Source: Desulfitobacteriaceae bacterium
GTDB lineage: Bacteria > Bacillota > Desulfitobacteriia > Desulfitobacteriales > Desulfitobacteriaceae
Assembly: GCA_049302575.1 (NCBI GenBank)
Contig: JBAQMG010000027.1
Coordinates: forward strand, 840-64,839
Reading direction: 5' to 3'
Length of the DNA: 64,000 bases
The notes under the pieces were generated by a model. It was given only the letters and a program-made list of their open reading frames with translations. It had not been told where the DNA came from and did no database searches. Both the position numbers and the translations under genes were made by a program. Below, in pieces: positions 27,421 through 62,713 of the stretch; the first letter of the stretch is position 1; every line of letters begins with the position of its first letter.

Positions 27421-28443
27421 GTGGAAGTGACTGAAACAAACCTAGTTTATAATAGTCATTTCCTGTTGTGGCAAGAAAGCAGGCTGGACTTTCCGGACGG
27501 TTGGCTTCAAACAGGCGGAGATACGGCAACGAAGTGGGAGTGGGTTGGCACTCCGGAAGGTTCAAGGGCTATTAAGATTGTCCATCCGTCGGGGCCGAGA
27601 GCGGGGATTACTCAAGAAAATAATGTCGTGATACCTGCTGGAGAAGGGCAGAGATGGGAAATCAGAGTTGTGCTTCAGACGGAGCCGGCGGAGATTCCTT
27701 GCTATATTCGAGTTTATCTTGGTGCAGTGAGCCAGTATTTAGTTTCCGTGCGACCAGGCTCAGGACCGGAAGAATATACCCGGGTTTTTTCCACGCCAGC
27801 AGGAGTAAATGGACTTCGGGTCGAGGTTGGGATTCTCGGAGAGGGAATAATTATAGTTCACGAGATTCAGGGCTGGAGGCTCTACCCCAAGCGAGAATTA
27901 CGGCTTGATGAAAAGGGGCAAATATACGTTCGTCACATCGATTCCATAGGGCAGATTCAAGCACCTGTCTCGGTGAGACTGGTGAGCCCTCTTCCGATAC
28001 CCGTCGATCTAAGAACACCCATAAGAGCTGACTTGCGGGATTTGACGCCTGCTCGTGATGGTCTAAAAATTTACGGTAGTAATGGAAATCCAATAATATC
28101 AACGAGTGATGGTGTAGTTCAAATTAAGATGTCTGGAAGAAAGTATATTCAAAGTGCAGAACCGGTGACCGCCTCTAATGTCTTCGGTTCAACCATACCT
28201 AGAGATGTAGCCGAGGTGAGTGTATATTCTTATGCTGTTCATAATATTGGCGGAGAAGGAGTATCGGTGCAATTACAAATCAGCCCGGATGGAGCAATTT
28301 GGACGGAGGATGATTTGGAACACGAGATATTACCGGGAGCACTTGAGGTTTTTACCCCAACTCACTTTCTCCGTTATGTACGCTTAATTTATCGTTCACA
28401 AGCTCTTAATCCTCTTACGGTGTGGTTTCAGGCTCAGGGTTAG
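27421..28443 (+). CDS. Uncharacterised two-part protein with an N-terminal jelly-roll/CBM-like region and a C-terminal domain shared with the 35487-36065 product
   Basis: 340 aa. The C-terminus VSVQLQISPDGAIWTEDD...FLRYVRLIYRS...LTVWFQAQG aligns with ALVKMQISPDGTNWLDET...FLKYARVYYSA...LNVFFQGEL of the paralog. From memory this may correspond to a DUF family annotated in Clostridia (possibly DUF6385). I cannot verify that here. Confidence 0.7.
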   Translation: MEVTETNLVYNSHFLLWQESRLDFPDGWLQTGGDTATKWEWVGTPEGSRAIKIVHPSGPRAGITQENNVVIPAGEGQRWEIRVVLQTEPAEIPCYIRVYLGAVSQYLVSVRPGSGPEEYTRVFSTPAGVNGLRVEVGILGEGIIIVHEIQGWRLYPKRELRLDEKGQIYVRHIDSIGQIQAPVSVRLVSPLPIPVDLRTPIRADLRDLTPARDGLKIYGSNGNPIISTSDGVVQIKMSGRKYIQSAEPVTASNVFGSTIPRDVAEVSVYSYAVHNIGGEGVSVQLQISPDGAIWTEDDLEHEILPGALEVFTPTHFLRYVRLIYRSQALNPLTVWFQAQG

Positions 28444-28536
28444 ATAAATCATTTAAGCGCAAAGAACTTAATGAGTTCTTAAGAATATAATGGGATAGAC
28501 GAACAGGAGAAGCGAACTTATAGAGGGGAGATTGTA

Positions 28537-28836
28537 TTGGACGGGCTTGCTTTAGTGCTTTTATTAGCCGTTGTGGTAGAGAAACTAGTTGAGATCTTTA
28601 AAGATATTGTTTACTCTATTCCCATGTTCCCAGATAAGTTTAGGCCCCTTACTTTGGAACTATTGAGTTTGACATGTGGTTTACTTTTTGCTTTTCAGAG
28701 TAACATTAATGCATTTGAACTACTAAATGTTAAGATCTCGGACCCTATGGTTGGAATAGTGACAACGGGCCTTGTGATAGGCAAGGGAGCAAACTTTGCG
28801 CATGATTTTTTCCAGTCTTTCAGTAAAACCAAATAA
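28537..28836 (+). CDS. Small membrane protein (99 aa, 2-3 TM, holin-like topology)
   Basis: A TTG start follows GAGGGGAG. Hydrophobic segments are LALVLLLAVVV, LLSLTCGLLFAF and IVTTGLVIG. The tail is polar. It is the only membrane protein in the island. Confidence 0.5.
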   Translation: MDGLALVLLLAVVVEKLVEIFKDIVYSIPMFPDKFRPLTLELLSLTCGLLFAFQSNINAFELLNVKISDPMVGIVTTGLVIGKGANFAHDFFQSFSKTK

Positions 28837-28877
28837 ACTATAAGAGGGACTTGTGTGCTATGTCACACAAGTCCCTC

Positions 28878-35361: not shown

Positions 35362-35486
35362 CTCTTTTTTCGTTTTAATAATATATGCACACTAAAACTG
35401 AAACTTTCCGTCGAGATAGAGAATATCATGTAGTGTGTGATCTGGATAATATTGGATTACATGAGAAAGGAAGGAGGAATAGAAGC

Positions 35487-36173: not shown

Positions 36174-37748
36174 TTAATCAGCAACAGCAAACTTGACAGT
36201 AACCGTTGTACCCGTTGGATTTGAGTCGAAGTTAATTTCTGCTTTATGACGGGCAGCTATACTATGACATATCGCTAGCCCTAACCCTGTCCCTCGTTCT
36301 TTGGTTGTGAGGAACGGAGTACCAAGCTTTTCGAGTATAACAGGGTCAAAGCCGCTACCTCGGTCGCGGATTTTAAGTATTATATGGTTCCCTAATATAT
36401 GCGTTTGAATCGTAAGAAGTGTACCACGTGGCATGGCTTCTAGGCCATTTCTCGCCAAGTTCAGGATGAGCTGTCGAAGCTCATTTTCATTTCCATGAAT
36501 GTCCGCGACCTGTTCAAGCTTAAGTTCTAGATCTTTTTCTTGATTTAGGGCATCCGCTAATAAAAGTGGAGATAGAGACTTCACTACCTTTGAAATATTG
36601 GTCAACTTAAAATCAGAGGGGTTGTCCCTAGCTAGGTTTAAGAAATCAGTAAGAATGAGATTCGCTCGATCGAGTTCCTCGATCATTAAGTCATAGAATT
36701 CGTGATATTGCTTTGTATCGTCCTTGGAGCCGAGCATTTGTAAAAACCCGCGAACAGTAGTCATTGGATTCCTTACTTCGTGAGCAATCCCCGCTGCCAT
36801 CTCTCCTACAAGATTAAGTCGATCCAAACGTGCCAATTCTCGTTCAGCCTGCTTTCTCGCTTCTATGTTGCGGCAAAAAATAGATATTCCGTTCGCTGTT
36901 GGATAAATACTAAAGTCAGCCCAATACCCGATTAGTGGCGCATAAGATTCAAATCGTATTGGTTGGCCATTTTCCATTACTTGTAGACAAAAATCATTGA
37001 TCAACTTATTATCATTCTTATAAATTTGCCAATAATCAGATCCTACCAAATGATTATGTAGTCCGTTTGCCTTACGCGCCTCAACCATGGCCTTATTAGC
37101 ATAGGTTATTACCCATTTGCGATTAACAGCTAGGAAACCATCGTTAATACTTTCAAGTAAATTAACCATCTCATGATTCGCTTTGTGGAGTTCATTCTTG
37201 GCGGCTTCTTTTTGGATAATCTCACTTCGAAGTTGCTTATTAATTACCCGAAGTTCACCAATACGCAATTTGACTATTTGCTCTAAGTCTTCCCGAGATT
37301 GATTCAATTCTTTTTCTTTAAGTTCATTCTCGGTAATGTCCCATACAGATACTACCCTGTAGTCTTTTCCGTTAACAGTAACATCATGAGCGTCAACGTG
37401 TACAGGGAAAGTACTGCCATCTTTTTTGAGATGGACAGAATTATAAGCGTAATGACCACTTTCATGAATTATGCGCACGATTTCACTAAGATCTTTTTGA
37501 CAATCTGGAGCATATACATCTTTCATTGATTTGCCAATTAACTCAGGAATACTATAGCCATGCATAGCCGCATAATGGGGATTCGTTTTTAGAATTTCAC
37601 CACTGATGGAGTCGGAAACTACCATACCCCAATAATTCTCTGTGAAAATTCGCTCCCAAATCGTATTTTCGTCTTGAGCACGTGCTAATTCTGCTTCTAG
37701 GAAAGCAACTTTTTGTTTTAATTTGGTTATCACTTTGTCTGAAGACAT
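36174..37748 (-). CDS. Orphan cytoplasmic PAS-domain histidine kinase (sporulation-kinase-like H-box)
   Basis: 524 aa with an N-terminal coiled coil and two PAS-like regions. The H-box is IAHEVRNPMTTVRGFLQML, the KinA-E style. HATPase motifs are NLARNGLEAM, DRGSG and GTGLGLAICH. There are no TM segments and no adjacent response regulator. Confidence 0.88.
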   Translation of the reverse strand: MSSDKVITKLKQKVAFLEAELARAQDENTIWERIFTENYWGMVVSDSISGEILKTNPHYAAMHGYSIPELIGKSMKDVYAPDCQKDLSEIVRIIHESGHYAYNSVHLKKDGSTFPVHVDAHDVTVNGKDYRVVSVWDITENELKEKELNQSREDLEQIVKLRIGELRVINKQLRSEIIQKEAAKNELHKANHEMVNLLESINDGFLAVNRKWVITYANKAMVEARKANGLHNHLVGSDYWQIYKNDNKLINDFCLQVMENGQPIRFESYAPLIGYWADFSIYPTANGISIFCRNIEARKQAERELARLDRLNLVGEMAAGIAHEVRNPMTTVRGFLQMLGSKDDTKQYHEFYDLMIEELDRANLILTDFLNLARDNPSDFKLTNISKVVKSLSPLLLADALNQEKDLELKLEQVADIHGNENELRQLILNLARNGLEAMPRGTLLTIQTHILGNHIILKIRDRGSGFDPVILEKLGTPFLTTKERGTGLGLAICHSIAARHKAEINFDSNPTGTTVTVKFAVAD

Positions 37749-43802: not shown

Positions 43803-43924
43803 GTGCTATTCCCCCCTTACGGAATATTTGAGTTTATGGAGTATAGAACTTTTTCATGGTATCTTATTCATTGAGGTAGGAGTGTGTTACAGTTGCCCCG
43901 TTTGGGTTGGTGGAGTTTACTAAA

Positions 43925-46412: not shown

Positions 46413-46443
46413 TAATGATTGGGGAAAACATTCAAATCGTTAT

Positions 46444-46860: not shown

Positions 46861-46871
46861 AATCGTACCTT

Positions 46872-48142: not shown

Positions 48143-49132
48143 TTGGGAATAGAAAATAGACAGATCTTAATTACTGGGGCAGGAGGCTTTATAGGCAGCC
48201 ATTTAACTGAAGCTTTAGTCAAAGCAGGAGCCAAAGTCCGAGTTTTTATCCGTTATAATTCTATGAATGGCCAGGGCAATTTGGCAGACCTAGACCACTC
48301 ATTGTTAGAAAATGTTGAGGTGATCGCAGGGGATCTCCGAGACTCAGATGTAGTTGATAAAGCAGTATCAGGTTGCGAGTTTGTTTTTCATTTAGGAGCT
48401 TTAGTGGGTATTCCTTATTCTTATAAAAATCCGCGGGAAGTTGTGGAGACGAATGTTCTTGGTACCTTTAATGTTCTTACAGCGGCGCGCGAGCATCAAG
48501 TTAACCGAGTCATTCATACTTCGACCAGTGAAGTGTATGGGTCGGCACTTTATGTCCCTATTGATGAGTCCCACCCACTCCAAGGACAGTCACCTTATTC
48601 CGCAAGTAAAATCGGGGCAGATAAGTTGGCAGAAAGTTTTTATGCCGCTTTTGACCTGCCAGTTGTGACAATACGACCCTTTAATAGTTATGGACCACGG
48701 CAATCAGCTAGAGCAGTTATTCCCACGATGATTACTCAAGCACTTACCTCTGAAGAGATTAAGTTAGGAAATACGGAAATACTGCGTGATTTTACGTTTG
48801 TGACAGACACTGCTGAGGGATTTATGGCAGCCGCTCTGAATGAAAAGGCAGTTGGAAAGGTTATTAATATAGGATCGGGACAGGAAGTTTCTATCGGACA
48901 ATTGGCCCAAATTATTGTAAATAAAGTACAACATCCCATCCCTATCAGTTTGGACGTTAAGCGCCTTAGACCAGGACGCAGTGAGGTAACACGTCTTTTG
49001 GCAGATAACCAGCTTGCCAAAGACGTTCTGAGTTGGGAGCCACGCGTATCGATCGAGGAGGGAATAGAACGAACAATCGTTTGGATTGCTGCCCATTTAA
49101 ATCGTTATCAGCTTGGCGAATACCAGATTTAA
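48143..49132 (+). CDS. NAD-dependent nucleotide-sugar epimerase/dehydratase (extended SDR)
   Basis: 329 aa. Motifs include ILITGAGGFIGSHL, STSEVYG and YSASKIGADKL (YxxxK). Substrate specificity cannot be determined from the sequence. Confidence 0.88.
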   Translation: MGIENRQILITGAGGFIGSHLTEALVKAGAKVRVFIRYNSMNGQGNLADLDHSLLENVEVIAGDLRDSDVVDKAVSGCEFVFHLGALVGIPYSYKNPREVVETNVLGTFNVLTAAREHQVNRVIHTSTSEVYGSALYVPIDESHPLQGQSPYSASKIGADKLAESFYAAFDLPVVTIRPFNSYGPRQSARAVIPTMITQALTSEEIKLGNTEILRDFTFVTDTAEGFMAAALNEKAVGKVINIGSGQEVSIGQLAQIIVNKVQHPIPISLDVKRLRPGRSEVTRLLADNQLAKDVLSWEPRVSIEEGIERTIVWIAAHLNRYQLGEYQI

Positions 49133-49157
49133 ACTTTCAGCAGAGAAGGAGAACGAT

Positions 49158-49850
49158 ATGCAAGCTGTTATTTTGGCAGGAGGGAGAGGCTCACGCCTTG
49201 ATCCCTATAGCCGGGTTTTACCGAAACCGCTTTTTCCCATTGGACACGATCCGATTGCGGCCCTTCTAGTGAAACAACTTAAAAACGCCGGGTTCGAGGA
49301 AATTATTATGTGTCTGGGGTATTTAGCTGATTTGATGATGGCCTATTTTCAAGAGGGTGACCGTTTTGGGTTACCTATTCGTTATGCGATAGAAACCTGT
49401 CCTTTAGGAACGGCAGGTCCTTTGAAAATAATTACCAAGCTTGCCGACGATTTTTTAGTAGTAAACGGTGATGAATTAACGACCTTGGATTTTGAGGCTT
49501 TATTTGCCCACCACCTGCAGATGAAAGCGGCTATGACGGTCGCTGTTCAAAAGAAGCTAGTTCCTTCCTCGTTTGGAGTTTTAGATATTAAAGATGGGCA
49601 AGTGATTGCCTATCGTGAAAAACCGACCCTTAACTATTGGGCGAGTATGGGGATTTATGTCTTAAATAGGAAAGTCCTTAAGTTGATTCCTGAAAACAAA
49701 CGCTTTGACATGCCAGACTTGGTCCAAGATCTTCTTAAGGAGCAAGCACGTATCGTGAGTTTCGAAAGTGAAGATCTCTGGTTTGATATTGGAACGAACG
49801 ATGATTTAGAGAAGGCACAAAAGGCCTTCGATCAGTTCCGACCAGATTAA
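49158..49850 (+). CDS. Sugar-1-phosphate nucleotidyltransferase
   Basis: The start is set at MQAVILAGGRGSRL after AGAAGGAGA. The G-x-G-x-R-L signature, LPKPL.PI and LGTAGPL are present. Confidence 0.85.
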   Translation: MQAVILAGGRGSRLDPYSRVLPKPLFPIGHDPIAALLVKQLKNAGFEEIIMCLGYLADLMMAYFQEGDRFGLPIRYAIETCPLGTAGPLKIITKLADDFLVVNGDELTTLDFEALFAHHLQMKAAMTVAVQKKLVPSSFGVLDIKDGQVIAYREKPTLNYWASMGIYVLNRKVLKLIPENKRFDMPDLVQDLLKEQARIVSFESEDLWFDIGTNDDLEKAQKAFDQFRPD

Positions 49851-49907
49851 AGTTCTGAGTGCTAGAACTATCTGTTTTTGCTTCCCATAGTATAAAGGAA
49901 ACTATTT

Positions 49908-49975
49908 GCGATGCTCGAAGTTTGATGCTCGATGAATGAGGTTCGAGGTTCGAACTACGCGCCTCGAACCTCGAA
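49908..49975. repeat. TCGAAG/TCGAGGT repeat block with internal inverted symmetry
   Basis: The sequence reads gcgatgctcgaagtttgatgctcgatgaatgaggttcgaggttcgaactacgcgcctcgaacctcgaaaa. Confidence 0.8.
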
Positions 49976-49993
49976 AAAGGGAGGTGGCAGAGC

Positions 49994-50893
49994 TTGGGAA
50001 AGATATTAATCTTGGGAGCAGCAGGAATGCTGGGGCATAATTTATTTTATTATCTATCTGAGAAGGGTGGTCACGAGGTACTAGGTACGGTTCGGTCGGA
50101 TAAAGAGTTATCCGGTTGGTTACCTCCGGAACTCCTGAAGAAAGTACGCTCCGGCGTAGATGTCAATCATTTCGAGAGTATCGTTTCAGTTATCGCGGAT
50201 TTCCAACCGGATATCGTGATTAATTGTGTCGGTATCATTAAACAAGTGTCAGCCGCTCAAGATCCGCTTATAACCCTAACCGTTAACGCTCTTTTGCCGC
50301 ACAGGATTGCTCTGCTTTGTAAGGCAACCAGTGCGCGGTTTATACATGTCAGCACGGATTGTGTCTTTGATGGTGTGAAAGGCAACTATTTAGAAAGTGA
50401 TATTTCTAACGCTACCGATTTATATGGCCGAACGAAATTCCTGGGAGAAGTTCTCTATCCACACTGTGTTACCTTACGTACTTCAATTATTGGGCATGAA
50501 TTAAAAGGGAGATATGGTTTGGTAGAATGGTTATTAGCTCAAAAAGTCAAAGCTCGAGGTTTCACCAAAGCGATATACTCCGGTTTTCCGACAGTGGAAT
50601 TATCACGAATAATCAATGATTATGTTCTTCCTAATCCGGAACTGAAAGGGCTTTATCACGTCTCGGCTGATCCAATCTCTAAATTTGAGTTATTAAAAAT
50701 TGTAGCTACAGAGTATAAGAAAAAGATCGAAATTGAACCGGAGGGAGAGCTGCAACCAGACAGATCGCTCGACTCTTCCCTGTTTCGTACCCTTACCGGT
50801 TATACTCCGCCGTCTTGGCCGCAACTCATTGAGCAAATGCATTTAGATTATTTGCATTTTCCTTTTAACAAAGTTTTCTTGGGGGTAAAATAA
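49994..50893 (+). CDS. RmlD-like (dTDP-4-dehydrorhamnose reductase family) sugar nucleotide reductase
   Basis: 299 aa. Motifs include ILILGAAGMLGHNL, STDCVFDG and YGRTKFLGE (YxxxK). Confidence 0.8.
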   Translation: MGKILILGAAGMLGHNLFYYLSEKGGHEVLGTVRSDKELSGWLPPELLKKVRSGVDVNHFESIVSVIADFQPDIVINCVGIIKQVSAAQDPLITLTVNALLPHRIALLCKATSARFIHVSTDCVFDGVKGNYLESDISNATDLYGRTKFLGEVLYPHCVTLRTSIIGHELKGRYGLVEWLLAQKVKARGFTKAIYSGFPTVELSRIINDYVLPNPELKGLYHVSADPISKFELLKIVATEYKKKIEIEPEGELQPDRSLDSSLFRTLTGYTPPSWPQLIEQMHLDYLHFPFNKVFLGVK

Positions 50894-51957
50894 TGAGGCT
50901 TTTAGAGAATAAAGTGCTCGTAATTACCGGTGGCACGGGCTCTTTAGGCAAGGTCTTAACACGCCGATTATTAACAAAAGAATTGGGTATGCCTCAGAAA
51001 ATTATTATATTTTCGCGTGATGAAGCCAAACAGCATGCTATGCGAGTTGAATATCAGCAGAAAAGTAAGGTTACAGATGAAGTGATTTATGATAATTTTG
51101 CTAGACTGATTGAGTTTAGAATTGGCGATATCCGTGACTATGCTTCGGTTTGTTCTGTTTTGAGAGATGCTGATGTCGTTATTAATGCCGCTGCTCTAAA
51201 ACAAGTTCCTTCTTGTGAGTATTTTCCTTTTGAAGCGGTGTTGACTAATGTGCTTGGTCCAGAAAATATCGTCAGGGCGATTCGCGAGAACAATTATAAA
51301 GTAAAAACCGTGGTTGGGGTATCTACGGATAAAGCCTGTAAACCGGTGAATGTTATGGGAATTTCTAAGGCTATGCAAGAGCGGATATTTATCACAGCTA
51401 ATGTGACGCTTCCCAAGACAAGATTTATTTGTGTGCGTTATGGTAATGTGCTTGCTTCCAGGGGGTCTGTAATCCCTTTGTTTCATGAACAAATTAAGCA
51501 CGGTGGTCCGATAACGATAACGACCAAGGAAATGACGAGATTCTTATTACCCTTAGAAAGTGCCGTCGATACCATTTTTGCTGTCCTTTCAGGCGCTAAG
51601 CGTGGTGAAATATATATACCAAAAATTCCTGCGGCGCGCATCGTTGATGTAGCCAAGGCTTTGATTGAAGATCGGAGTTTGTTAATAGAATATACGGGAA
51701 TTCGCCCAGGAGAAAAGGTTCATGAAGTATTAGTTTCTGAAGAAGAGGCTTGGCGAGCGTATGATCGGGGCGACTATTATGCGATTAAACCCATGCTTCC
51801 CGAATTGTTTATTGCGGAGCCTGGTCAACAGGCGTTGTCCAAAGAGTATAGTTCTGGCGATTTTCTCATGACCCTCGAAGAAACGGAAGCTTTGTTAAGA
51901 AAGCATTATCTGATGGTGGGGCAAGACTATATCGACGAAGGAGAATTTTTGCGTTGA
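50893..51957 (+). CDS. CapE/FnlA/WbjB-type UDP-GlcNAc 4,6-dehydratase/5-epimerase
   Basis: 354 aa. Motifs include VLVITGGTGSLGK, FSRDEAKQ, NAAALKQVPSCEYFPFEA and STDKACKPVNVMGISKAMQE. The last carries Met-x3-Lys in place of Tyr-x3-Lys, the hallmark of the CapE/FnlA subgroup. Confidence 0.82.
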   Translation: MRLLENKVLVITGGTGSLGKVLTRRLLTKELGMPQKIIIFSRDEAKQHAMRVEYQQKSKVTDEVIYDNFARLIEFRIGDIRDYASVCSVLRDADVVINAAALKQVPSCEYFPFEAVLTNVLGPENIVRAIRENNYKVKTVVGVSTDKACKPVNVMGISKAMQERIFITANVTLPKTRFICVRYGNVLASRGSVIPLFHEQIKHGGPITITTKEMTRFLLPLESAVDTIFAVLSGAKRGEIYIPKIPAARIVDVAKALIEDRSLLIEYTGIRPGEKVHEVLVSEEEAWRAYDRGDYYAIKPMLPELFIAEPGQQALSKEYSSGDFLMTLEETEALLRKHYLMVGQDYIDEGEFLR

Positions 51958-53560: not shown

Positions 53561-53753
53561 TTAGAAAAATTAGCCGGTTTCAAAGTGGAGTAGGGAAAGT
53601 TACCTCAAGTAGGGCTTGTCCTCTTATAGGGTATGTCTAGGAATTGTTCCAGCAAGCACAAGCGAACTCGCTTCGCTCGATGATTCCTGGTAACCAAATT
53701 AGGACATGAACAATACAATAAATTAACCCATAATTTAGGAGGTTATTGGATAT

Positions 53754-54092: not shown

Positions 54093-54159
54093 ACAGTAAC
54101 GAAAATCGGACAAGTACAATATAATGTATAAACCCATAACTTAGGAGGTTAGAAAAAAT

Positions 54160-55992: not shown

Positions 55993-57129
55993 ATGGAGGG
56001 TAAGGAAATAAGCATCAGTCTATGTATGATAGTCCGTAACGAAGAGAATACAATTGCGCGCTGTCTTAATTCCGTCAAAGGTATTCCTGATGAAATAGTT
56101 ATTGTTGATACAGGTTCCTCAGATCGTACGCAAGAGATTGTCCAAGAATTCACTGATAAAATCTTTGATTTTACTTGGATTGATGATTTTGCGGCTGCCC
56201 GCAATTTTGCTTTTAGCAAAGCAAGCACGGATTATATCCTTTGGCTGGATGCCGATGATATTTTTGCAGAGTCTGATCGGGAGCAGTTTCTGAAACTGAA
56301 GATAAATTTAGATCCCTTAATGGACGCCGTCAATATGCCCTATCTTTTAGCATTTGATCAGTTTGGCGCAGTTACTTTCAGCTTAAGAAGGAATCGCTTG
56401 GTTAAACGAAGTAAGAACTTCCGATGGATTGGGGCTGTACACGAGTATTTGGAGGTGCCTGGACAGGTTTTAAACTCTGATATTTGTGTAACCCACAAGG
56501 GAATGGGAGGGGGTGATGCTGACCGCAACCTTAAAATATATGAGAAGCGTAAGGTCAAAGGGGAATCGTTTTCCCCACGGGATTTATACTACTATGCTAA
56601 CGAACTGTTTGATCACCAACTCTATAAGCGAGCGATTGAAGCTTACCAGGAATTTTTTGAGACTGGACAGGGCTGGGTCGAGGATAAAATTGCTGCTTGC
56701 GGAAAAACGGCGGATTGTTACCAAAACTTGGGAGAAAAGACCAAACAACTGGAATATATCTTTAAATCCTTTGAACATGCCACCCCAAGGGCTGAGTTCT
56801 GTTGTCGCTTAGGTTTTTATTTTCTGAGTGCTGAGCATTATGAACAAGGGGTTTTCTGGTACAAACTGGCTACTCGATTGGAAAAGCCTATTGACAGCTG
56901 GGGACCTATGATTGAAGCCTGCTTTACGTGGTTACCGCATTTACAGTTGTGTGTTTGCTATGATCGCTTAGGTAAACATGAGTTGGCCTATGAGCATAAT
57001 GAGATTGCTAGAAAGTATCGTCCGGAAAATACCCAAGTTATGTACAACAAGAATTATTTGGAGGGTATTTTAGGATTGGGAAGGGCCGCCGAAACGGAAG
57101 AAATCAATCAGGAATTAGCCAGTAAGTAG
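55993..57129 (+). CDS. GT2 glycosyltransferase with a TPR-like C-terminus (fourth member of the family)
   Basis: 378 aa. ISISLCMIVRNEE..IARCL.SV....DEIVIVDTGSSDRT....DDFAAARNFAF..A..DYILWLDADD is followed by a helical repeat tail. Confidence 0.85.
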   Translation: MEGKEISISLCMIVRNEENTIARCLNSVKGIPDEIVIVDTGSSDRTQEIVQEFTDKIFDFTWIDDFAAARNFAFSKASTDYILWLDADDIFAESDREQFLKLKINLDPLMDAVNMPYLLAFDQFGAVTFSLRRNRLVKRSKNFRWIGAVHEYLEVPGQVLNSDICVTHKGMGGGDADRNLKIYEKRKVKGESFSPRDLYYYANELFDHQLYKRAIEAYQEFFETGQGWVEDKIAACGKTADCYQNLGEKTKQLEYIFKSFEHATPRAEFCCRLGFYFLSAEHYEQGVFWYKLATRLEKPIDSWGPMIEACFTWLPHLQLCVCYDRLGKHELAYEHNEIARKYRPENTQVMYNKNYLEGILGLGRAAETEEINQELASK

Positions 57130-57153
57130 AGGCTAGCCCTCTACTTACTTTTG
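57121..57153 (+). terminator. Terminator hairpin overlapping the stop codon of the GT2-TPR gene
   Basis: The stem agtaagtagagg-ctagc-cctctacttact is followed by tttg. Confidence 0.7.
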
Positions 57154-57238
57154 TTAGAAATACATAGTTTACCATTATTCCTCCGTAATAAAATGACTCC
57201 GCTAATATAGCGGAGTCATACATCTTCCCGTTGAGCTT
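57151..57238. repeat. Copy 2 of the ~88 bp direct repeat (partner at 26734-26822), the truncated 5' end of a toxin-like gene paralog
   Basis: The minus strand reads palindrome, GGAGGA, then ATG GTA AAC TAT GTA TTT CTA ACA AAA. Homology to copy 1 then stops at the GT2-TPR terminator. Confidence 0.85.
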
Positions 57239-57550
57239 ATTTATCTTTGTGTGTAGTTCTGGCAAATTAGCGGCAAACTGCTTGGTAACGACCTTGGCAA
57301 CTTTTGAGGCAAAATGGCAAGTGAACTCGTTCAACTAAAGCTGAACATCGAGAATTCGGTGGGGGAGTCTACCGCTCTTCGCCGCTTAAAATTTCTTTGT
57401 GGATAGGCGGCTTGGGCGAAACCCTACACTGTAGGTTTTCGTCACCGAAGCAGAGTACGGGGTACCACTCCCTTGCAGAATTGGGAGTTTCACGATTGGA
57501 TGAACTGGTCAAAAGAGCCGAACAAAAAACCAGCAATCGCTTGCGGGACT

Positions 57551-57583
57551 AAGGTTCCTATGGAGCAGATGGTCGGAATTGAA
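57551..57583 (-). other. Isolated tRNA 3'-end fragment (variable loop, T-arm, acceptor 3' strand, CCA), att-site-like
   Basis: The minus strand reads AGGTC GTCGG TTCAATT CCGAC CATCTGC T CCA. The upstream 40 nt cannot form D or anticodon arms or the acceptor 5' strand, so this is not a complete tRNA gene. Confidence 0.6.
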
Positions 57584-57701
57584 CCGACGACCTGTAGTTG
57601 TTCATAAGTATAGCTATTTGTGCTGTCAATATGAATATTTTTTCTTGATTGCATATCATAATTATGATAAAATTATGATAACCAACAAGGAGGTGTATAT
57701 T

Positions 57702-57989
57702 ATGCCACAAATCAGACCGATTTCCGATCTTCGCAATAATTTTACCGAGATTTCCCGCATCGTCCATGAGGCGGGTGAGCCGGTTTTCCTGACCAAGAAC
57801 GGCTACGGTGATATGGTTGTCATGAGCGTTGAGCAGTTCGAAGCGTTCAGGCAGGAGCGCCGAATTGATGTCGCCTTGCAGGAAGCCCAGAAGGAAGCCT
57901 TGGAGAATCCAATTCGCTATGACTTCGATGAGGTTTCTTCCAATCTTCGCAAGAAGTTGATTGCAAAGCTGGATGGAGCCGATGCGTAG
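57702..57989 (+). CDS. Phd/YefM-family type II antitoxin
   Basis: 95 aa from the ATG at 57702, 8 nt after AAGGAGG. MPQIRPISDLRNNFTEISRIVHEAGEPVFLTKNGYGDMVVMSVEQFE is a typical Phd/YefM N-terminus. Its stop overlaps the toxin start (ATGCGTAG). Confidence 0.85.
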   Translation: MPQIRPISDLRNNFTEISRIVHEAGEPVFLTKNGYGDMVVMSVEQFEAFRQERRIDVALQEAQKEALENPIRYDFDEVSSNLRKKLIAKLDGADA

Positions 57990-58278
57990 AATTGTCATGC
58001 TCCCTCGTGCCGCACAGGACTTAGAGGATGTGGTCGATTACCTTTCGCAATTCTACGCAACCACTGCGCTAAAGCAGTACGACCGCATTGTTTCTAAAAT
58101 ACAAGAACTGCCCCACTTTCCACTTAAATATGAGGAATACGGAGCCGGTCATTACCGTTTTTCCTATCGCAGGATGATAGTGTACGACTACTTGGTATTT
58201 TATGCCGTGCTAGATGACACAATAGAAATCCATCGTATCCTACACGGAAAAAGGGACATCGGAAGATACTTGGATTGA
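57982..58278 (+). CDS. ParE/RelE-family type II toxin
   Basis: 98 aa. MRRIVMLPRAAQDLEDVVDYLSQFY....A.....I...I..L..FP........Y.....YRRMIV.DYLVFY......IEIHRILHGKRD fits the ParE/RelE plasmid-stabilisation pattern. Confidence 0.8.
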   Translation: MRRIVMLPRAAQDLEDVVDYLSQFYATTALKQYDRIVSKIQELPHFPLKYEEYGAGHYRFSYRRMIVYDYLVFYAVLDDTIEIHRILHGKRDIGRYLD

Positions 58279-58761: not shown

Positions 58762-59811
58762 ATGAAAATTGGTGTCGTTGGTCTGGGTAATATCGGCTTT
58801 AATCTTTTCACTTACCTCTGTCGTATATTTCCGGGAAAGGTCATCGGGGTGGATGTGAATGAGAGTAGGGTCAACGAATTACAGAGCAAGGGTTATCGGG
58901 TGACCTCGGATTATCGAGAATTAACAGGGATAGATGTTTGGTTAATGGCTCCTTCCACGGGTAATCAGGGGCAAAACCTATTTTCGGCCTTAGCGCAGAT
59001 GATCATCTTTCCAGGTTCTTTAATTTCCATTGAATCGACGTTGCCTCCGGGAACAATGAGGCGTGTGCGAGAATTTTTAGAGGAAAAAGGGTTCAGATTA
59101 GGAACTGATATTTTCTTGATTCATGTACCCCATAGGGTAATGTTTGGTGTTGATAAAACTGTTTGTGATACCCCACGGGTAATGGGGGCCTTTACAAGTG
59201 CCTGTCTAGAAAAGGGGCGTCATTTTTATACTCCGTTGGTTCCCCTTCTAGTTGAAGTTTCCGATGTCCGGGTGGCGGAGCTGTCTAAGGTGGTTGAGAA
59301 TGTAAAGCGCTATGTTGATGTAGCCTTTGCTCAGGAAATTTATGGCTATTGTGTGGATCAGGGAATGGATTATAACGAGCTAAGATTGGCAGTAAATAGT
59401 AAAAATAACGTCGAACTTCTGGGTACAGACTGGGGTATTGGTGGGGAGTGCTTGCCTAAAGACATGGGCTTCTTACGGACTGTTTGTCCTTCAACCTTGT
59501 TGGAAGGGGCGGAACAGGCGGATAGGGAGTACCAGGATAGGCTCGTACAACAAGTGGGCAGTGCTAAGCAGGTTTTAGTTAGGGGTTTAAGCTATAAAAC
59601 AGGGGTTAAGGATCTTAAGCATAGCAGAGGGGTCGATTTGGTCAGAGCTTTAGAAGCGGCAGGGAATACCGTCTGGGTGGAAGACCCTTTATTTACTCCT
59701 GAGGAGTTAAGGCGAGCGGGCTTTAAGGCCTATGATGAGAGCGATCTGGGGAGTGAAAAACAAATGGATAGGGTGGTGTTGGAGCGGCAAAGGGCCTTAG
59801 ATCAAAAATAA
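58762..59811 (+). CDS. Nucleotide-sugar dehydrogenase (UDP-glucose/GDP-mannose dehydrogenase family, short form)
   Basis: 349 aa. The Rossmann motif is MKIGVVGLGNIG. The catalytic Cys context is GIGGECLPKDMGF. The C-terminal domain has LVRGLSYKTGVKDLKHSRG. Confidence 0.85.
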   Translation: MKIGVVGLGNIGFNLFTYLCRIFPGKVIGVDVNESRVNELQSKGYRVTSDYRELTGIDVWLMAPSTGNQGQNLFSALAQMIIFPGSLISIESTLPPGTMRRVREFLEEKGFRLGTDIFLIHVPHRVMFGVDKTVCDTPRVMGAFTSACLEKGRHFYTPLVPLLVEVSDVRVAELSKVVENVKRYVDVAFAQEIYGYCVDQGMDYNELRLAVNSKNNVELLGTDWGIGGECLPKDMGFLRTVCPSTLLEGAEQADREYQDRLVQQVGSAKQVLVRGLSYKTGVKDLKHSRGVDLVRALEAAGNTVWVEDPLFTPEELRRAGFKAYDESDLGSEKQMDRVVLERQRALDQK

Positions 59812-59857
59812 GGTTCAATGGACGACCGTGAATTGCTTAGAAAAAGGAGTAAAGCAG

Positions 59858-60775
59858 ATGGCCAAAATATTAGTAACAGGGAGTAAAGGAACGTTAGGTT
59901 CGCGATTGGTAGAAGTATTGCAAAACCTGGGACATGAGGTTTGGGAAGTTGATTTGCAACACCATCTCGGGGAGAAATATATTAGGGCGGACATCTCTGA
60001 GTATCGCCAGTTAGAACGGGTTTTTGAGCAAAATTATGATTGTGTCTTTCATTTAGCTGCTGAATTTGGCCGTATTAATGGAGAACATTATTATGACACA
60101 CTTTGGAAAACAAACGTAATTGGGACTCGTAACATTTTAGAATGGCAATTGAAAAAAGGGTTTAAACTCATATTTACAAGCTCCTCCGAAATATACGGGG
60201 AAGCAGCGGAACCCCTTTTGACCGAAGATTTGCCTTTAAAAAAGACGATTATTCAGCATAATGACTACGCTTTAACCAAGTGGGCTAATGAAGTTCAGAT
60301 CATAAATTTCGAAAAAAAATACCAATCTCCGATTGTTAGACTGCGCTTATTCAATGCTTATGGCCCAGGGGAGTACTATCATTCCTACCGTAGTGTTGTT
60401 TGCCTCTTTATCTACCGGGCGTTAAAGGGGATTCCTTATGAAGTTTATGAGAGCTACTACCGTGTTTTTATGTATGTCGATGATTTAATTCCGACTATAG
60501 CTAACGTGGCAAATAACTTTAAGCCCGGTGAGGTTTACAACATCGGAGGAACGGAATATCGCAGTGTCAAAGATTTAAGTGAGTTAGTGTTAAACTATAC
60601 GGGCGGTGATCCGAGCCTAGTGAAGTATCTTCCAGAAGACAAACACAATACAGTCAGTAAACGACCAGATATTAGCAAAGCGACGGCTGATCTTGGTCAT
60701 AACCCAAAGGTATTGCTAGAAGAGGGATTACCCATTACCGTAGAGTGGATGAAGACGATATATCGTAGTTCGTAG
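59858..60775 (+). CDS. NAD-dependent nucleotide-sugar epimerase/dehydratase (extended SDR)
   Basis: The start is set at MAKILVTGSKGTLGSRL after AAAAGGAG. SSSEIYG and YALTKWANE (YxxxK) are present. The last codons (YRSS*) run into a heptamer array. Confidence 0.85.
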   Translation: MAKILVTGSKGTLGSRLVEVLQNLGHEVWEVDLQHHLGEKYIRADISEYRQLERVFEQNYDCVFHLAAEFGRINGEHYYDTLWKTNVIGTRNILEWQLKKGFKLIFTSSSEIYGEAAEPLLTEDLPLKKTIIQHNDYALTKWANEVQIINFEKKYQSPIVRLRLFNAYGPGEYYHSYRSVVCLFIYRALKGIPYEVYESYYRVFMYVDDLIPTIANVANNFKPGEVYNIGGTEYRSVKDLSELVLNYTGGDPSLVKYLPEDKHNTVSKRPDISKATADLGHNPKVLLEEGLPITVEWMKTIYRSS

Positions 60776-60817
60776 TTCGTAGTTCGAATATCGAATATCG
60801 AATATCGAATATCGATT
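60762..60817. repeat. Eight perfectly phased heptamers, TCGTAGT x3, TCGAATA x4 and TCGATTA
   Basis: The sequence reads tcgtagt tcgtagt tcgtagt tcgaata tcgaata tcgaata tcgaata tcgatta. It spans the epimerase stop codon and ends at the RBS of the next gene. Confidence 0.95.
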
Positions 60818-60831
60818 AAGGAGGGCCGCTA

Positions 60832-61566
60832 ATGCTAATACCTAGAGTTAGTGTAGTCATCCCAACGTACAATCACGTCCGGTATCTACCCTATGCCCTT
60901 GATAGTGTCATCAATCAGGGTTATCCAAATCTTGAGGTGTTTGTGATTGATGATGGTTCCAACGATGGAACAGCCCAAATAGTGAATCTCTATCGTTCAA
61001 AAATTAACTATATTTACAAAGAAAATGGGGGAACACCCAGCGCCTTAAATCTTGGGTTATCTCTTGCAACTGGTAAGTATATCTGCTGGTTAAGTGCAGA
61101 TGACATATTAATGGAAGGAAAAGTGGCCAAACAGGTTGGACTGATGGAAAGTGATTCGAGCTTGGGTTTAAGCTACACGAGCTTTGTGGTTATTGATGCC
61201 AATGGTAAAAAGCAATATGATGTAAATTCAACTTATTTTCCCGACAAGCAGGAAATGGTGACTAAGCTCATGGAGGGCTGTTTTATTAATGGATCTTCCG
61301 TAATGATGAGAAGTTCTGCTTTAAAGATAATAGGGAATTTCGACGAGAGTCTGCCCCAAGCGCATGATTATGATTTGTGGTTCCGCTTTCTTCGTCATTA
61401 TTCATGCGGATTTCTGGAGGAACATCTGCTGGCCTATCGCTGGCACGGTGAAAATATGAGTCAAAATCCCAACGAAGCATGTTCTGCGATCGTTAGAGAG
61501 AGAGCTAAACAACTTTTTCCCGAGTGGTTAACAACGGAAACACCAATATGCTCAGAACCACCGTAG
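60832..61566 (+). CDS. GT2-family glycosyltransferase
   Basis: 244 aa. Motifs include VSVVIPTYNH..YL..AL.SV.NQ.Y.NLEVFVIDDGSNDGT and WLSADD. Confidence 0.88.
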   Translation: MLIPRVSVVIPTYNHVRYLPYALDSVINQGYPNLEVFVIDDGSNDGTAQIVNLYRSKINYIYKENGGTPSALNLGLSLATGKYICWLSADDILMEGKVAKQVGLMESDSSLGLSYTSFVVIDANGKKQYDVNSTYFPDKQEMVTKLMEGCFINGSSVMMRSSALKIIGNFDESLPQAHDYDLWFRFLRHYSCGFLEEHLLAYRWHGENMSQNPNEACSAIVRERAKQLFPEWLTTETPICSEPP

Positions 61567-61606
61567 ATGTAGGGAACTAAAATAAGGGTAGAGGGGAAAT
61601 CCTGAC

Positions 61607-62713
61607 ATGAAGATAATGACCATATTAGGTACGCGTCCAGAAATCATTCGCTTAAGCCGGATCATTCCTCTTTTAGATGACCTTTGTGATCATATCCTCG
61701 TGCATACAGGCCAAAATTTTGAGCGGACGTTAAGTGATATATTTTTTACTGAACTAAAGTTGAGGTCACCAGATTATTTGCTAAACTGTCGGGCTTCGAC
61801 ATTGATGGGTCAAATCGGCGAGATACTCCGCGGGTGTGAACAGGTGATGCTTAAAGAGCAGCCTGATCGCCTGCTTATTTTAGGGGATACCAATAGTGCC
61901 TTAGCGGCGATGGTCGCTAAACGGCTACGGATTCCGGTTTACCATATGGAGGCGGGTAACCGTTGTTATGATGATCGTGTGCCGGAGGAAATCAACCGCC
62001 GAGTTATCGATCATTGCAGCGATATTTTATTGCCTTACACAGAACGAAGTCGGGCTAATTTGCTTAGTGAAGGGATTAACGGGGAACGTATTTATGTTAC
62101 TGGTAACCCGATATGGGAAGTTCTCAAGCATTACGCAGACAGGATTGAACAAAGTCAAATTCTGCAGGCTTTGAGAGTAGCCAGCAAAGGCTATTTTCTA
62201 GTGACCTTGCATCGGGCCGAAAATGTCGACGATGAGGAACGTCTCACCAAATTCATAAACGCCCTAGATAGATTAGCTGCAGAATATGGGAGGCCACTTA
62301 TTTGCTGTCTTCATCCCCGTACTCGTTCCCGGTTGGAGAAGCAAAGCAGGACTTTTGCCGGAACCGGCATCCAGGTCGTGGAACCGTTAGGCTTATTCGA
62401 TTTTGTATTTCTAGAGCAAAATGCCTTTTGTGTTTTGAGCGATAGTGGGACAGTCCAAGAAGAGTGTTGTCTCTATAAAATACCTAATGTGACTTTACGG
62501 GATGTAACCGAACGACCGGAAACATTGGAGGCGGGAAGCAATTTGCTTGCTGGATGTGAACTGGAAGTAATCTCGCAGGCGGTGAGAACAGTTTTAAGTC
62601 AGGGCTCGGACTGGGAGCCTCCACCAGAATACTTGGCGCCAAAAGTAAGTCGAAAGGTTAGCAAAATAATTCTAGGTGGGGGTACAACAGTGAAGCCTTA
62701 CAACAAAAAGTAA
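61607..62713 (+). CDS. UDP-N-acetylglucosamine 2-epimerase (non-hydrolysing; WecB/FnlC/WbvD-like)
   Basis: 368 aa. Motifs include MKIMTILGTRPEIIRLS, LILGDTNSAL, HMEAGNRC, PEEINRR..DH, LVTLHRAENVD and SDSGTVQEE. Confidence 0.9.
   Translation: MKIMTILGTRPEIIRLSRIIPLLDDLCDHILVHTGQNFERTLSDIFFTELKLRSPDYLLNCRASTLMGQIGEILRGCEQVMLKEQPDRLLILGDTNSALAAMVAKRLRIPVYHMEAGNRCYDDRVPEEINRRVIDHCSDILLPYTERSRANLLSEGINGERIYVTGNPIWEVLKHYADRIEQSQILQALRVASKGYFLVTLHRAENVDDEERLTKFINALDRLAAEYGRPLICCLHPRTRSRLEKQSRTFAGTGIQVVEPLGLFDFVFLEQNAFCVLSDSGTVQEECCLYKIPNVTLRDVTERPETLEAGSNLLAGCELEVISQAVRTVLSQGSDWEPPPEYLAPKVSRKVSKIILGGGTTVKPYNKK

Follow-up and report, generated by a model that had tools for sequence, protein, structure and literature searches.

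The DNA analysed here, a 64,000-nt stretch of contig JBAQMG010000027.1 from a Desulfitobacteriaceae bacterium (referred to as the window), contains at positions 27421-62713 a locus that we read, with a probability of roughly 0.7, as a spore-surface glycoprotein system; it would encode the components of the outermost spore layer together with the enzymes that decorate them, and production would take place in the mother cell. A mother-cell protein glycosylation or spore-surface system had been proposed in a first-pass annotation of this DNA, and in silico support for it now comes from a BclA-type protein, glycosyltransferases (GTs) resembling GmaR and SunS, SigK-like promoter motifs and the phyletic spread of the genes. 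The gene inventory is based on Pfam and NCBIfam searches and a Kyte-Doolittle hydropathy scan over all 31 open reading frames (ORFs) of the locus (Table 1). The closest named relatives of the window proteins all belong to Desulfosporosinus, and as spoIIGA, sigE and sigG lie inside the window and a small acid-soluble spore protein (SASP) gene directly to the right of the locus, the host is a Desulfosporosinus-like endospore former.

The collagen-like protein contains 60 GXY triplets without interruption, of which 53 are GAT, and a repeat count placed Thr at position Y in 54 of them, close to the approximately 53 Thr residues first noted. It matched Pfam Collagen with an E-value of 6.2e-27, and its C-terminal head was recognized by BclA_C (PF18573) with 61.2 bits against a cutoff of 38 and aligned with the structure of Bacillus anthracis BclA (1wck) at E 1.2e-14. 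A gene for a 378-aa GT2 follows the collagen gene at a distance of 161 bp; the two are not separated by a strong terminator, and a strong one comes after the GT gene at 57121-57149. From this arrangement, the enzyme is our prime candidate for initiating glycosylation of the GAT repeats. Searches against PDB related it to GmaR (E 8.5e-28) and to SunS-type enzymes (1e-16), and the NCBIfam SunS family gave 72.6 bits, which is under its cutoff. No Pfam TPR was found in this protein; its helical C-terminal half may have TPR character, judging by a weak match to a designed TPR protein (E 6.6e-4) and by weak SunS similarity. In Clostridioides difficile, the 358-aa GT2 SgtA, which has four C-terminal TPRs and is encoded beside bclA3, adds beta-O-linked N-acetylglucosamine (GlcNAc) to Thr residues of the BclA3 collagen repeats in vitro (PMC7157674).

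Altogether, the locus encodes 11 soluble GTs and one CgeB-like protein. The earlier tally of at least 12 GTs was accurate for two double GT-A proteins, four GT4 or GT-B enzymes and one plain GT2, but it has to be lowered to 11 plus the CgeB-like protein, and the last of the four GT2-TPR fusions it listed, the 378-aa enzyme, is without a Pfam TPR. All four GT2-TPR-type proteins carry the Pfam GT2 domain, and Pfam TPR models matched the 369-, 637(586)- and 668-aa proteins. The start of the 637-aa ORF is most likely at 33371, giving 586 aa as in the ortholog of D. orientis, and the hydrophobic N-terminus of the longer ORF is for that reason taken as a probable ORF-calling artefact. The nearest solved structures of the GT2-TPR catalytic domains are Listeria GmaR, followed by peptide S-glycosyltransferases of the SunS/ThuS type (PDB 22ao, 7msk and 7msn for the two groups taken together), the SunS-type matches ranging from 1e-23 to 1e-14; for the 668-aa protein the best PDB relatives were GmaR (E 4.7e-36) and SunS-type enzymes (E 1e-23 to 1e-20). 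As GmaR and SunS are both cytoplasmic protein or peptide glycosyltransferases, the classification of these fusions as a protein-directed type agrees with their closest solved relatives. In domain architecture the fusions correspond to SgtA of C. difficile. The CgeB-like protein was likewise recognized as such by its Glyco_trans_1_2 domain. Its N-terminal part had no Pfam match to a domain of the YkvP_N/DUF3880 type, and the D. orientis ortholog showed a weak YkvP_N match.

No priming transferase, Wzx, Wzy, chain-length regulator or ABC transporter was matched by Pfam or NCBIfam in the 31 ORFs, nor was any polytopic membrane protein present, in accordance with the first description of a locus devoid of export machinery. 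Dedicated priming or export genes just outside the locus would have spoken against that description, and none were found in the window flanks, including the approximately 1.3 kb to the right. The hydropathy scan returned a convincing segment in the 99-aa ORF alone, already singled out as the sole membrane protein, and gave no signal peptide or anchor in the structural proteins, namely the collagen-like protein, its small paralogs, the DUF6385 proteins, the propeller protein and the 653-aa protein. The 99-aa ORF matched phrog_20258 (function unknown) over its full length with an E-value of 1.4e-13 and is kept after the DUF6385 gene in Desulfosporosinus.

The two proteins initially described as paralogous QISPDG-domain proteins both proved to carry Pfam DUF6385. 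The start of the second, listed as a 226-aa ORF, was corrected to 35487, in agreement with an NCBI protein of 192 aa and 100% identity; the gene contains a 69-nt tandem repeat, and its AlphaFold2 (AF2) model has a mean confidence (pLDDT) of 86.5. DUF6385 proteins generally consist of a conserved N-terminal peptide, a variable number of the 23-aa repeat and a jelly roll predicted at a pLDDT above 95. Scanning of a DUF6385 alignment against one genome per GTDB species yielded 78 loci (up to 20 kb each) from Desulfosporosinus, Desulfotomaculum and its relatives, Desulforudis, Pelotomaculum, Desulfofundulus, Ammonifex, Sporomusa, Pelosinus, Anaerospora, Aneurinibacillus and Syntrophomonas. All of these lineages are Bacillota known for endospore formation, and the named taxa with DUF6385 all fall within sporeforming Bacillota.

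The window proteins were then compared by tblastn with the 42 loci of at least 18 kb, which come from other species. GT2-TPR homologs were present in 40 of these, exactly three distinct GT2-TPR genes in 33 and a double GT-A homolog in 34. The GT2-TPR gene nearest to the DUF6385 gene was separated from it by a median gap of 165 bp and lay on the opposite strand in divergent orientation in 40 of 40 loci, and in the window, too, the GT2-TPR/double GT-A operon runs divergently from a DUF6385 gene. Among DUF6385 loci, the CgeB-like gene, the GT4 genes and the genes for the 653-aa and propeller proteins are limited to Desulfosporosinus, and the module of collagen and small-paralog genes was found within 10 kb of DUF6385 in none of these loci. 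We therefore interpret the window as joining at least two modules, an old DUF6385/GT2-TPR cassette and a module of collagen and N-terminal-domain genes with its own SgtA-like GT. Judged by their neighbourhood, the collagen-like protein and the DUF6385 proteins are the candidate substrates of the adjacent GTs. The cassette of DUF6385 and three GT2-TPR genes, which reaches into the Negativicutes, appears to be undescribed in the literature searched.

In C. difficile, SigE and SigK promoters have the -10 element in common and are told apart by the -35 element, which is ATA for SigE and AC for SigK; bclA1-3 depend on SigK (PMC3789822). A corresponding SigK-like pattern, AAC-N17-[AC]ATAnnnT[AG], was detected in 37 of 64 non-redundant upstream regions of DUF6385 genes, as against 0.5 in shuffled sequences, with its -10 end mostly 32-57 nt before the start codon. 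The -10 takes the canonical form CATAnnnTA (CATAGACTA) in Sporomusa and also in several further, distant loci. Over the entire window, AC-N16/17-[AC]ATAnnnTA gave eight well-placed matches versus 0.9 expected (maximum of three in 100 shuffles), and six of the eight are in the locus. The motifs preceding both small-paralog genes are kept in D. youngiae. In nucleotide-sugar set 1, with motifs upstream of 48143 and 49994, this architecture was seen before the RmlD-like gene and, with the AC of the -35 element as CAC instead of AAC, before the LegB-like gene; it also precedes the propeller gene. Motifs of the sigma-70 type were not enriched in the window (37 found versus 35.8 expected), and a scan with the SigE pattern gave nothing useful. 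The suggested search for SigE and SigK promoters thus turned up SigK-like motifs, which are enriched and are conserved before DUF6385 genes in other genera.

A second conserved box, AATATATGCA, was noticed in the intergenic region 35362-35486 and in the equivalent regions of related loci; a G(T/A)AAC-N-TTCC element, likewise conserved, lies approximately 10 nt away. On the GT strand it reads GCATATATT, a CATAnnnTA-like -10. No -35 element (AC or ATA at the right spacing) was found for the GT2-TPR strand, though this -10-like box is kept in many genera, and the box could be the site of a shared regulator.

Both nucleotide-sugar gene sets named at the outset were confirmed by Pfam, at 48143-51957 and 58762-62713. 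For the first set all NCBIfam scores were below their cutoffs (LegB 431 bits, cutoff 475; PseB 304; FnlA 272; rmlD 101), and its product is predicted to be of the 6-deoxy-hexose(amine) class. In the second set wecB scored 281.7 bits, over the cutoff of 210, and the remaining genes were under theirs; its donors are predicted to be of the N-acetylmannosamine or N-acetylmannosaminuronic acid type (ManNAc(A)). As WecB alone passes a curated NCBIfam cutoff, the exact sugars cannot be named. NCBIfam searches found neither a complete nonulosonic- or legionaminic-acid pathway beside the LegB/PseB-like genes nor an rmlA/B/C set above cutoff.

Two further structural proteins are encoded in the left half. 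The 653-aa protein had no Pfam or NCBIfam family; Ser, Thr and Pro together make up 30-50% of residues 351-600, the last 50 of these being at 28%, and the syntenic gene of D. orientis encodes 593 aa. In the propeller protein, the C-terminal domain (last 220 residues) belongs to a family of approximately 210-aa proteins from Desulfitobacterium, Alkaliphilus, Clostridium and Tissierellia, with five invariant cysteines and one nearly invariant cysteine in approximately 210 aa (24 members). Some members are labelled SipL SPOCS/DUF3794 in UniRef, an assignment that was reproduced neither by Pfam over the 24 members nor by the PDB search.

These components would fit together as follows. SigK-type promoters would switch the units on in the mother cell late in sporulation, and the GmaR/SgtA-like GT2-TPR enzymes would bind the structural proteins via their TPR domains and place the first sugar on Thr or Ser, for example on the 54 Thr residues of the GAT repeats, on the Thr/Ser-rich stalk of the DUF6385 protein and possibly on the 653-aa protein. 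The GT-A, GT4 and CgeB-like enzymes would then lengthen the glycans with the 6-deoxy-hexosamine-type and ManNAc(A)-type sugars made by the locus. The proteins would assemble on the spore surface, where the free N-terminal-domain proteins may form a platform or polymer that receives the homologous N-terminal domain of the collagen-like protein, and where the cysteine-bearing domain may tie the propeller protein into a cross-linked layer. Lysis of the mother cell would expose this layer, so that no transporter would be needed.

Several observations weigh against a spore-surface glycoprotein system. The collagen-like protein has no exosporium leader motif (TIGR03720, which binds ExsF/BxpB), NCBIfam at E <= 0.1 returning collagen-adhesin models only, and its BclA_C-like head also matches the PHROG family 'collagen like minor tail' of phage tail fibres (E 2.4e-15). 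Several GTs of the locus weakly resemble teichuronic-acid and exopolysaccharide enzymes (TuaG, TuaH, EpsD/EpsE; NCBIfam), and export genes could lie elsewhere in the genome. The SigK-like motif was partly refined on the same sequences in which it was later counted, and its -10 element in Desulfosporosinus has A as first letter in place of the canonical C. A strict SigK scan gave four matches, in which the strict CATAnnnTA before the two small genes lies only 17 nt from the ATG; being too close for a ribosome-binding site, these sites were discarded as the small-gene promoters and replaced by the upstream AAC-N17-AATAnnnTA. Finally, our literature search retrieved nothing relevant on DUF6385, nor on Desulfosporosinus or Desulfotomaculum in connection with an exosporium or collagen-like proteins.

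Table 1. Features of the locus (coordinates refer to the 64,000-nt window; for promoter motifs the strand is that of the gene)
Feature	Coordinates	Strand	Characteristics
DUF6385 protein, 340 aa	27421..28443	+	N-terminal beta-rich domain and C-terminal DUF6385 jelly roll; Pfam E 2.5e-26; no signal peptide or hydrophobic segment; orthologs in 17/78 loci
Small membrane protein, 99 aa	28537..28836	+	Hydrophobic N-terminal segment; 9/78 loci
Double GT-A, 531 aa	28878..30473	-	Pfam GT2 at 317-435 and weak Anp1-like N-terminal half; last gene of operon
GT2-TPR, 369 aa	30512..31621	-	Pfam GT2 E 2.5e-18 and TPR_2/TPR_1
GT2-TPR, probably 586 aa	31611..33371	-	Pfam GT2 and TPR; listed ORF (637 aa) extends to 33524
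GT2-TPR, 668 aa	33355..35361	-	Pfam GT2 E 2.9e-24 and many TPR models; first gene of operon
SigK-like promoter element	35402..35430	+	AAC-N17-AATATCATG, 57 nt upstream of DUF6385 start codon
DUF6385 fibre-like protein, 192 aa	35487..36065	+	Pfam DUF6385 E 2.1e-22; N-terminal conserved peptide, two 23-aa Thr/Ser/Gly-rich repeats, C-terminal jelly roll
PAS histidine kinase, cytoplasmic	36174..37748	-	Pfam PAS, HisKA, HATPase; 1/78 related loci; no counterpart in syntenic D. orientis locus
GT4, 354 aa	37874..38938	-	Pfam Glycos_transf_1 E 8.5e-14
CgeB/YkvP-type GT-B-like protein, 318 aa	38948..39904	-	Pfam Glyco_trans_1_2 (PF13524) C-terminal domain, E 3.9e-27, 95.4 bits vs cutoff 25
Ser/Thr/Pro-rich protein, 653 aa	40117..42078	-	Globular N-terminal ~340 aa, S/T/P-rich middle, charged coiled-coil-like tail
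YVTN beta-propeller with ~210-aa C-terminal domain, 519 aa	42243..43802	-	TIGR02276 repeats E 4.2e-63
SigK-like motif	43860-43888	-	Upstream of propeller gene
GT-B-like, TuaH-like (weak), 341 aa	43925..44950	-	NCBIfam TuaH 85.8 bits, far under cutoff; weak Pfam GT1
GT4, 375 aa	45285..46412	+	Pfam Glycos_transf_1 E 1.1e-32
Pseudogene fragment, NDP-sugar dehydrogenase	46378..46911	+	Central UDPG_MGDP_dh domain alone; paralog of 58762-59811 by sequence similarity
GT4, 330 aa	46872..47864	-	Pfam Glycos_transf_1 E 8e-25
Nucleotide-sugar set 1	48143..51957	+	LegB-like NDP-sugar 4,6-dehydratase, sugar-1-P nucleotidyltransferase, RmlD-like reductase, PseB/FnlA-like UDP-GlcNAc 4,6-dehydratase (Pfam)
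Double GT2 (GT-A), 494 aa	51954..53438	+	Two Pfam GT2 stretches
SigK-like motif	53692-53720	+	Upstream of 112-aa paralog gene
Free-standing N-terminal-domain paralog, 112 aa	53754..54092	+	66% identity to 114-aa paralog, 52% to collagen N-terminal domain
SigK-like motif	54098-54126	+	Upstream of 114-aa paralog gene
Free-standing N-terminal-domain paralog, 114 aa	54160..54504	+	Same paralog alignment (52-66% identity overall)
BclA-type collagen-like protein, 429 aa	54542..55831	+	N-terminal domain 1-117; GXY repeats 118-297; BclA_C/C1q-like head
GT2 with helical C-terminal half (SgtA/GmaR/SunS-like), 378 aa	55993..57129	+	Pfam GT2 E 4.4e-23
Inserted debris	57104..58278	.	ToxN-like gene fragment, 18-nt tmRNA 3'-end-like match, Phd/ParE toxin-antitoxin pair (57705-58278)
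Nucleotide-sugar set 2 and one GT	58762..62713	+	NDP-sugar dehydrogenase (UDP-ManNAc-DH-like, 58762-59811), epimerase/dehydratase, 244-aa GT2, non-hydrolysing UDP-GlcNAc 2-epimerase
Plain GT2, TuaG-like, 244 aa	60832..61566	+	Pfam; NCBIfam score under cutoff

The N-terminal domain that the collagen-like protein shares with its two small neighbours had no match in Pfam, NCBIfam, PDB or PHROG, and the family appears to be undescribed in the literature searched. It comprises about 158 clusters at 50% identity, and its named records come from Desulfosporosinus, Paenibacillus and Fictibacillus only, all of them sporeforming lineages. The domain nearly always begins at residue 1 and either stands alone or precedes another long region, such as a stretch of collagen or YVTN repeats. 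Conservation is particularly high at residues 4-11 (L-x-T-G-x-I-x-N), part of the sequence set having been chosen on that motif. In the AF2 model of the 114-aa paralog (pLDDT 72.7) the chain forms an eight-stranded beta sandwich, from which the first approximately 20 residues protrude as a low-confidence extension, and the nearest folds retrieved by Foldseek were TM1070/ASRT (TM-score 0.6), not Ena or F-ENA. A relationship of this family to DUF6385 was rejected (hhalign probability 0.3%).

D. youngiae has four genes with this domain in tandem. The fourth, at 12268-13824 of its locus, encodes 518 aa without a Pfam match, follows the collagen gene and has no counterpart in the window, which reflects a turnover of 'display' modules on the N-terminal domain. 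In Paenibacillus (CP150148.1, 1590695-1612263), two tandem proteins of 710 and 522 aa carry the domain and are flanked by three small genes of the sigma-70 family, two of which share the Pfam pattern of the window sigE (r2, r4 and a weak HTH_3); the three may be a dedicated regulator set.

A bolder version of the spore-surface interpretation, which we put forward as tentative and somewhat doubtful, is that the locus unites two undescribed systems. The first would be a mother-cell O-glycosylation machine, conserved from Desulfitobacteriaceae and Desulfotomaculia to sporeforming Negativicutes, in which the GT2-TPR trio and the double GT-A protein glycosylate DUF6385 fibres. The second would be a new class of spore filament or anchoring platform, made of beta-sandwich subunits of approximately 113 aa with a conserved N-terminal docking peptide; in Desulfosporosinus and Paenibacillus their domain also heads display modules such as collagen stalks and beta-propellers. 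This design would parallel endospore appendages (ENA and F-ENA) without homology to them.

A refinement that looks unlikely overall goes one step further and makes the small proteins the subunits of a filamentous endospore appendage, polymerizing via their N-terminal peptide, with the collagen-like protein capping or decorating the fibre as F-Anchor/F-BclA and L-BclA do on F-ENA and L-ENA, and with DUF6385 proteins possibly forming a second type of fibre. The tandem arrangement of three paralogous domains, one of them fused to collagen repeats and a C1q-like head, and of four in D. youngiae would suit such a design, as would the conserved residues 4-11, the start of the domain at residue 1 and the extension left outside the sandwich by AF2. 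There is also a precedent in F-ENA, where the subunit domain is reused on collagen-like anchors and an N-terminal hook docks the subunits (PMC12357932). The DUF6385 jelly roll retrieved PirA, Ena3A, Ena2A, Ena1B and Ena1C and viral capsids at the top of a Foldseek search, with E-values of 5e-4 to 1e-3 and TM-scores of 0.52-0.57 for Ena3A, Ena2A and Ena1B and up to 5e-3 for the Ena proteins as a whole; the predicted fold is of the same general kind as that of Ena, homology not being demonstrated, and the scores are typical of any jelly roll, with viral capsids and PirA matching equally well. Neither the small proteins nor, by Pfam, the DUF6385 proteins show a relation to DUF3992 or DUF4183, the small-protein model leads to TM1070/ASRT, there are no cysteines for Ena-type cross-links, and in the Paenibacillus locus examined every copy of the domain is part of a long protein and none is free-standing. 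Lacking also any PDB sequence match, the small paralogs were rejected as homologous Ena/F-ENA subunits, and the analogy alone was kept.

Three other explanations of the locus were rated low, and each conflicts with several independent observations. It is improbable that the genes specify a vegetative capsule, a teichuronic-acid-like polymer or an S-layer glycan with priming, export and polymerase genes elsewhere. The many GTs, the two sugar-nucleotide sets and the weak TuaG, TuaH, EpsD/EpsE and WecB similarities would be expected of such a locus, and only 64 kb of the genome are in view; yet the 31 ORFs and the flanks hold no priming or export gene, four of the GTs are of the protein-directed GmaR/SunS/SgtA type, and the genes are interleaved with signal-free structural proteins including one of BclA type. 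Furthermore, the cassette is confined to sporeforming lineages, and it is the SigK-like motifs, not those of the sigma-70 type, that are enriched.

Still less probable is an island for the glycosylation of flagellin or another vegetative protein, an idea suggested by the GT2-TPR catalytic domain, whose closest solved structure is GmaR, GmaR-like GT2-TPR proteins being classic flagellin O-glycosyltransferases, and by the LegB/PseB-type genes, which are common in flagellar glycosylation islands. No flagellin was found by tblastn in the window or the 78 related loci with B. subtilis Hag as query, the Pfam scans of the window gave no flagellar genes, the gene kept next to the GT2-TPR trio encodes DUF6385, and the LegB/PseB-like genes are without the rest of the nonulosonic-acid pathway. 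The least probable alternative, prophage or defence-island debris in which a collagen-like tail fibre, a holin-like ORF and toxin-antitoxin pairs came by chance to lie among sugar genes, could invoke the PHROG matches of the BclA_C-like head and the 99-aa ORF and the mobile traces (a ToxN/AbiQ-like ORF with a 6A RNA, the Phd/ParE pair, a tmRNA-end fragment and a methyltransferase remnant), but these traces are found only at the edges and at 57.1-58.3 kb, genes for a capsid, terminase, portal, tail tube or integrase were looked for with Pfam and not found, the core genes belong to none of the PADLOC systems, the PADLOC and PHROGs matches being peripheral, and both the arrangement of small-paralog, collagen and GT genes and the left half are syntenic across Desulfosporosinus species.

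The composition and gene order of the locus were compared with the flanks and with related genomes. The first 22 kb of the window are the end of a division and cell-wall cluster, in the order murG, murB, murA, ftsQ and ftsZ, then spoIIGA, sigE and sigG, and then ylmE, sepF, divIVA and ileS. The G+C content of the locus (0.40-0.48) is the same as that of the flanks, the skew is also not distinct, and no tRNA or integrase was found at the locus. Its left half is syntenic in D. orientis DSM 765, where the order is DUF6385 genes, a small ORF, double GT-A, three GT2-TPR, DUF6385, GT4, CgeB-like, an approximately 600-aa protein, propeller protein, GT-B, GT4 and dehydratase. Likewise, the right half is syntenic in D. 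youngiae DSM 17734, in the order GT4, four sugar genes, a large GT2, small paralogs, collagen protein, GT2, GT4s, dehydrogenase and epimerase. The synteny in these two species shows no sign of a recent acquisition, and together with the undistinguished composition and the lack of tRNA and integrase it led us to discard a recently acquired foreign island. We accordingly regard the locus as a conserved yet variable feature of Desulfosporosinus with local insertions and decay. In the former term 'mosaic island', the word 'island' overstates the foreignness of a locus that has the G+C content of its flanks and keeps its synteny within the genus.

Systems of this kind are already known from BclA-type nap proteins, SgtA-type GTs, cge/sps genes and csxA-bcl-GT clusters. 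With bclA3-sgtA of C. difficile the locus shares a Thr-rich GXY collagen protein with a C-terminal globular head next to a GT2 of approximately 360-380 aa with a helical or TPR C-terminus, proteins that are cytoplasmic, and the lack of export genes; bclA is SigK-dependent there, and SigK-like motifs are present here. It differs in that the GT gene is downstream and not upstream of the collagen gene, that the collagen-like protein has a folded N-terminal domain of 117 aa and two free paralogs, and that the locus is approximately ten times the size, since it also has DUF6385 proteins, two sugar pathways and another 10 GTs. The hairy nap of B. anthracis and B. cereus offers a BclA_C head, a collagen stalk with Thr at Y, nearby sugar-nucleotide genes and mother-cell synthesis, the last putative here. 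Unlike BclA, the present protein has no leader motif and carries GAT instead of GPT repeats; the sugars are predicted to be 6-deoxy-hexosamine and ManNAc(A) and not the dTDP-rhamnose and anthrose of those operons; and the proposed anchoring partner is the small paralogs in place of ExsFA/BxpB.

The crust of B. subtilis (cgeB, cgeD, sps; PMC7439481, PMC13577073) similarly involves a CgeB/YkvP-type protein, a LegB-like dehydratase and a nucleotidyltransferase, and soluble GTs would in both cases act on spore-surface proteins in the mother cell, whereas homologs of CgeA/CotVWXYZ and a complete legionaminic-acid pathway are absent here, and GT2-TPR, collagen-like and DUF6385 proteins are absent there. 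In Clostridium, genes for collagen-like proteins, cysteine-rich envelope proteins and GTs are co-located (PMC7333573), and the SPOCS/DUF3794 fold has been assigned to the exosporium lattice proteins CsxA and CsxC (bioRxiv 10.64898/2026.09.03.749163). The csxA-bclA-GT cluster of C. sporogenes/botulinum (PMC7333573) resembles our locus in bringing together collagen-like genes, a GT and a cysteine-bearing envelope protein; in contrast to CsxA, the cysteine domain is here fused to a YVTN propeller, its homology to CsxA is unproven (no Pfam SPOCS in 24 members), and GTs are far more numerous.

The S/L-ENA (DUF3992) and F-ENA (DUF4183) proteins (PMC12357932) are, like the small paralogs, beta-sandwich proteins of approximately 100-115 aa with a conserved N-terminal peptide, and in both cases the subunit domain recurs on a collagen-like protein that ends in a C1q-type head. 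A further resemblance is that of the DUF6385 jelly roll to Ena folds, at a Foldseek E-value of approximately 5e-4. They differ by the lack of a sequence relation, by the absence of cysteines here, by polymerization, which is a proposal here, and by the position of the shared domain, which is C-terminal in F-Anchor and N-terminal in the collagen-like protein. Listeria GmaR and SunS/ThuS, finally, are cytoplasmic and transfer the sugar of a nucleotide sugar straight to a protein or peptide, but their substrates are flagellin and bacteriocin peptides, and neither flagellin nor a lantibiotic-like precursor is encoded nearby.

Surface layers decide how spores stick, disperse and are recognized, and molecular knowledge of them comes almost wholly from Bacillus and a few Clostridium and Clostridioides species. 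The occurrence and composition of such a system in sporeformers of the Desulfitobacteriaceae/Desulfotomaculum type were not found in the literature searched, as the first-pass annotation had surmised of its exact composition, and the locus provides a parts list for sulfate-reducing and acetogenic sporeformers, a large group of environmental importance, such as Desulfosporosinus, the relatives of Desulfotomaculum and Sporomusa. It predicts that DUF6385 proteins are spore-surface glycoproteins modified by the conserved GT2-TPR trio, and that the unannotated domain of approximately 113 aa serves to assemble or anchor surface filaments, collagen-like ones among them. If true, a function would be assigned to Pfam DUF6385 and to the unannotated family of approximately 158 clusters (50% identity), the SgtA/BclA3 paradigm of cytoplasmic protein O-glycosylation would extend to much of the sporeforming Bacillota, and the appendage design of a subunit domain reused on a collagen-like protein would have an independent case.

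Some genes in and around the locus stand apart from the glycoprotein system. By its distribution, the PAS kinase is a lineage-specific insertion and no part of the conserved locus. It is an orphan placed between the DUF6385 gene and the GT4/CgeB-like operon, with a SigK-like motif 93 nt upstream; orphan kinases of this sort feed the sporulation phosphorelay in clostridia. The debris at 57104-58278 is no functional part of the system. It includes, at 57104-57334 on the reverse strand, a second, shortened copy of a ToxN-like N-terminus (ILAESFYYGG..V.YVFLT) and, at 57572-57589 on the same strand beside the Phd/ParE pair, an 18-nt match to the 3' end of transfer-messenger RNA (tmRNA; E 0.012), which together look like the scar of a mobile element once integrated at an ssrA-like site. 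The other ToxN/AbiQ-like ORF (122 aa; 26435-26860, reverse strand; Pfam ToxN E 0.014, PADLOC AbiQ E 8.8e-4) is immediately preceded by an Rfam 6A RNA match (RF02925, 57.3 bits; gathering score 41.2), and the two could be a type III toxin-antitoxin-like pair with the 6A RNA motif as the RNA partner. At the opposite edge, flanked by the last sugar gene and the SASP gene, approximately 62940-63300 on the forward strand encodes what is left of the C-terminus of a Dcm-type DNA cytosine methyltransferase (RLQGFPNSFKIVVSDTQAYKQFGNPVVV), with a stop codon inside.

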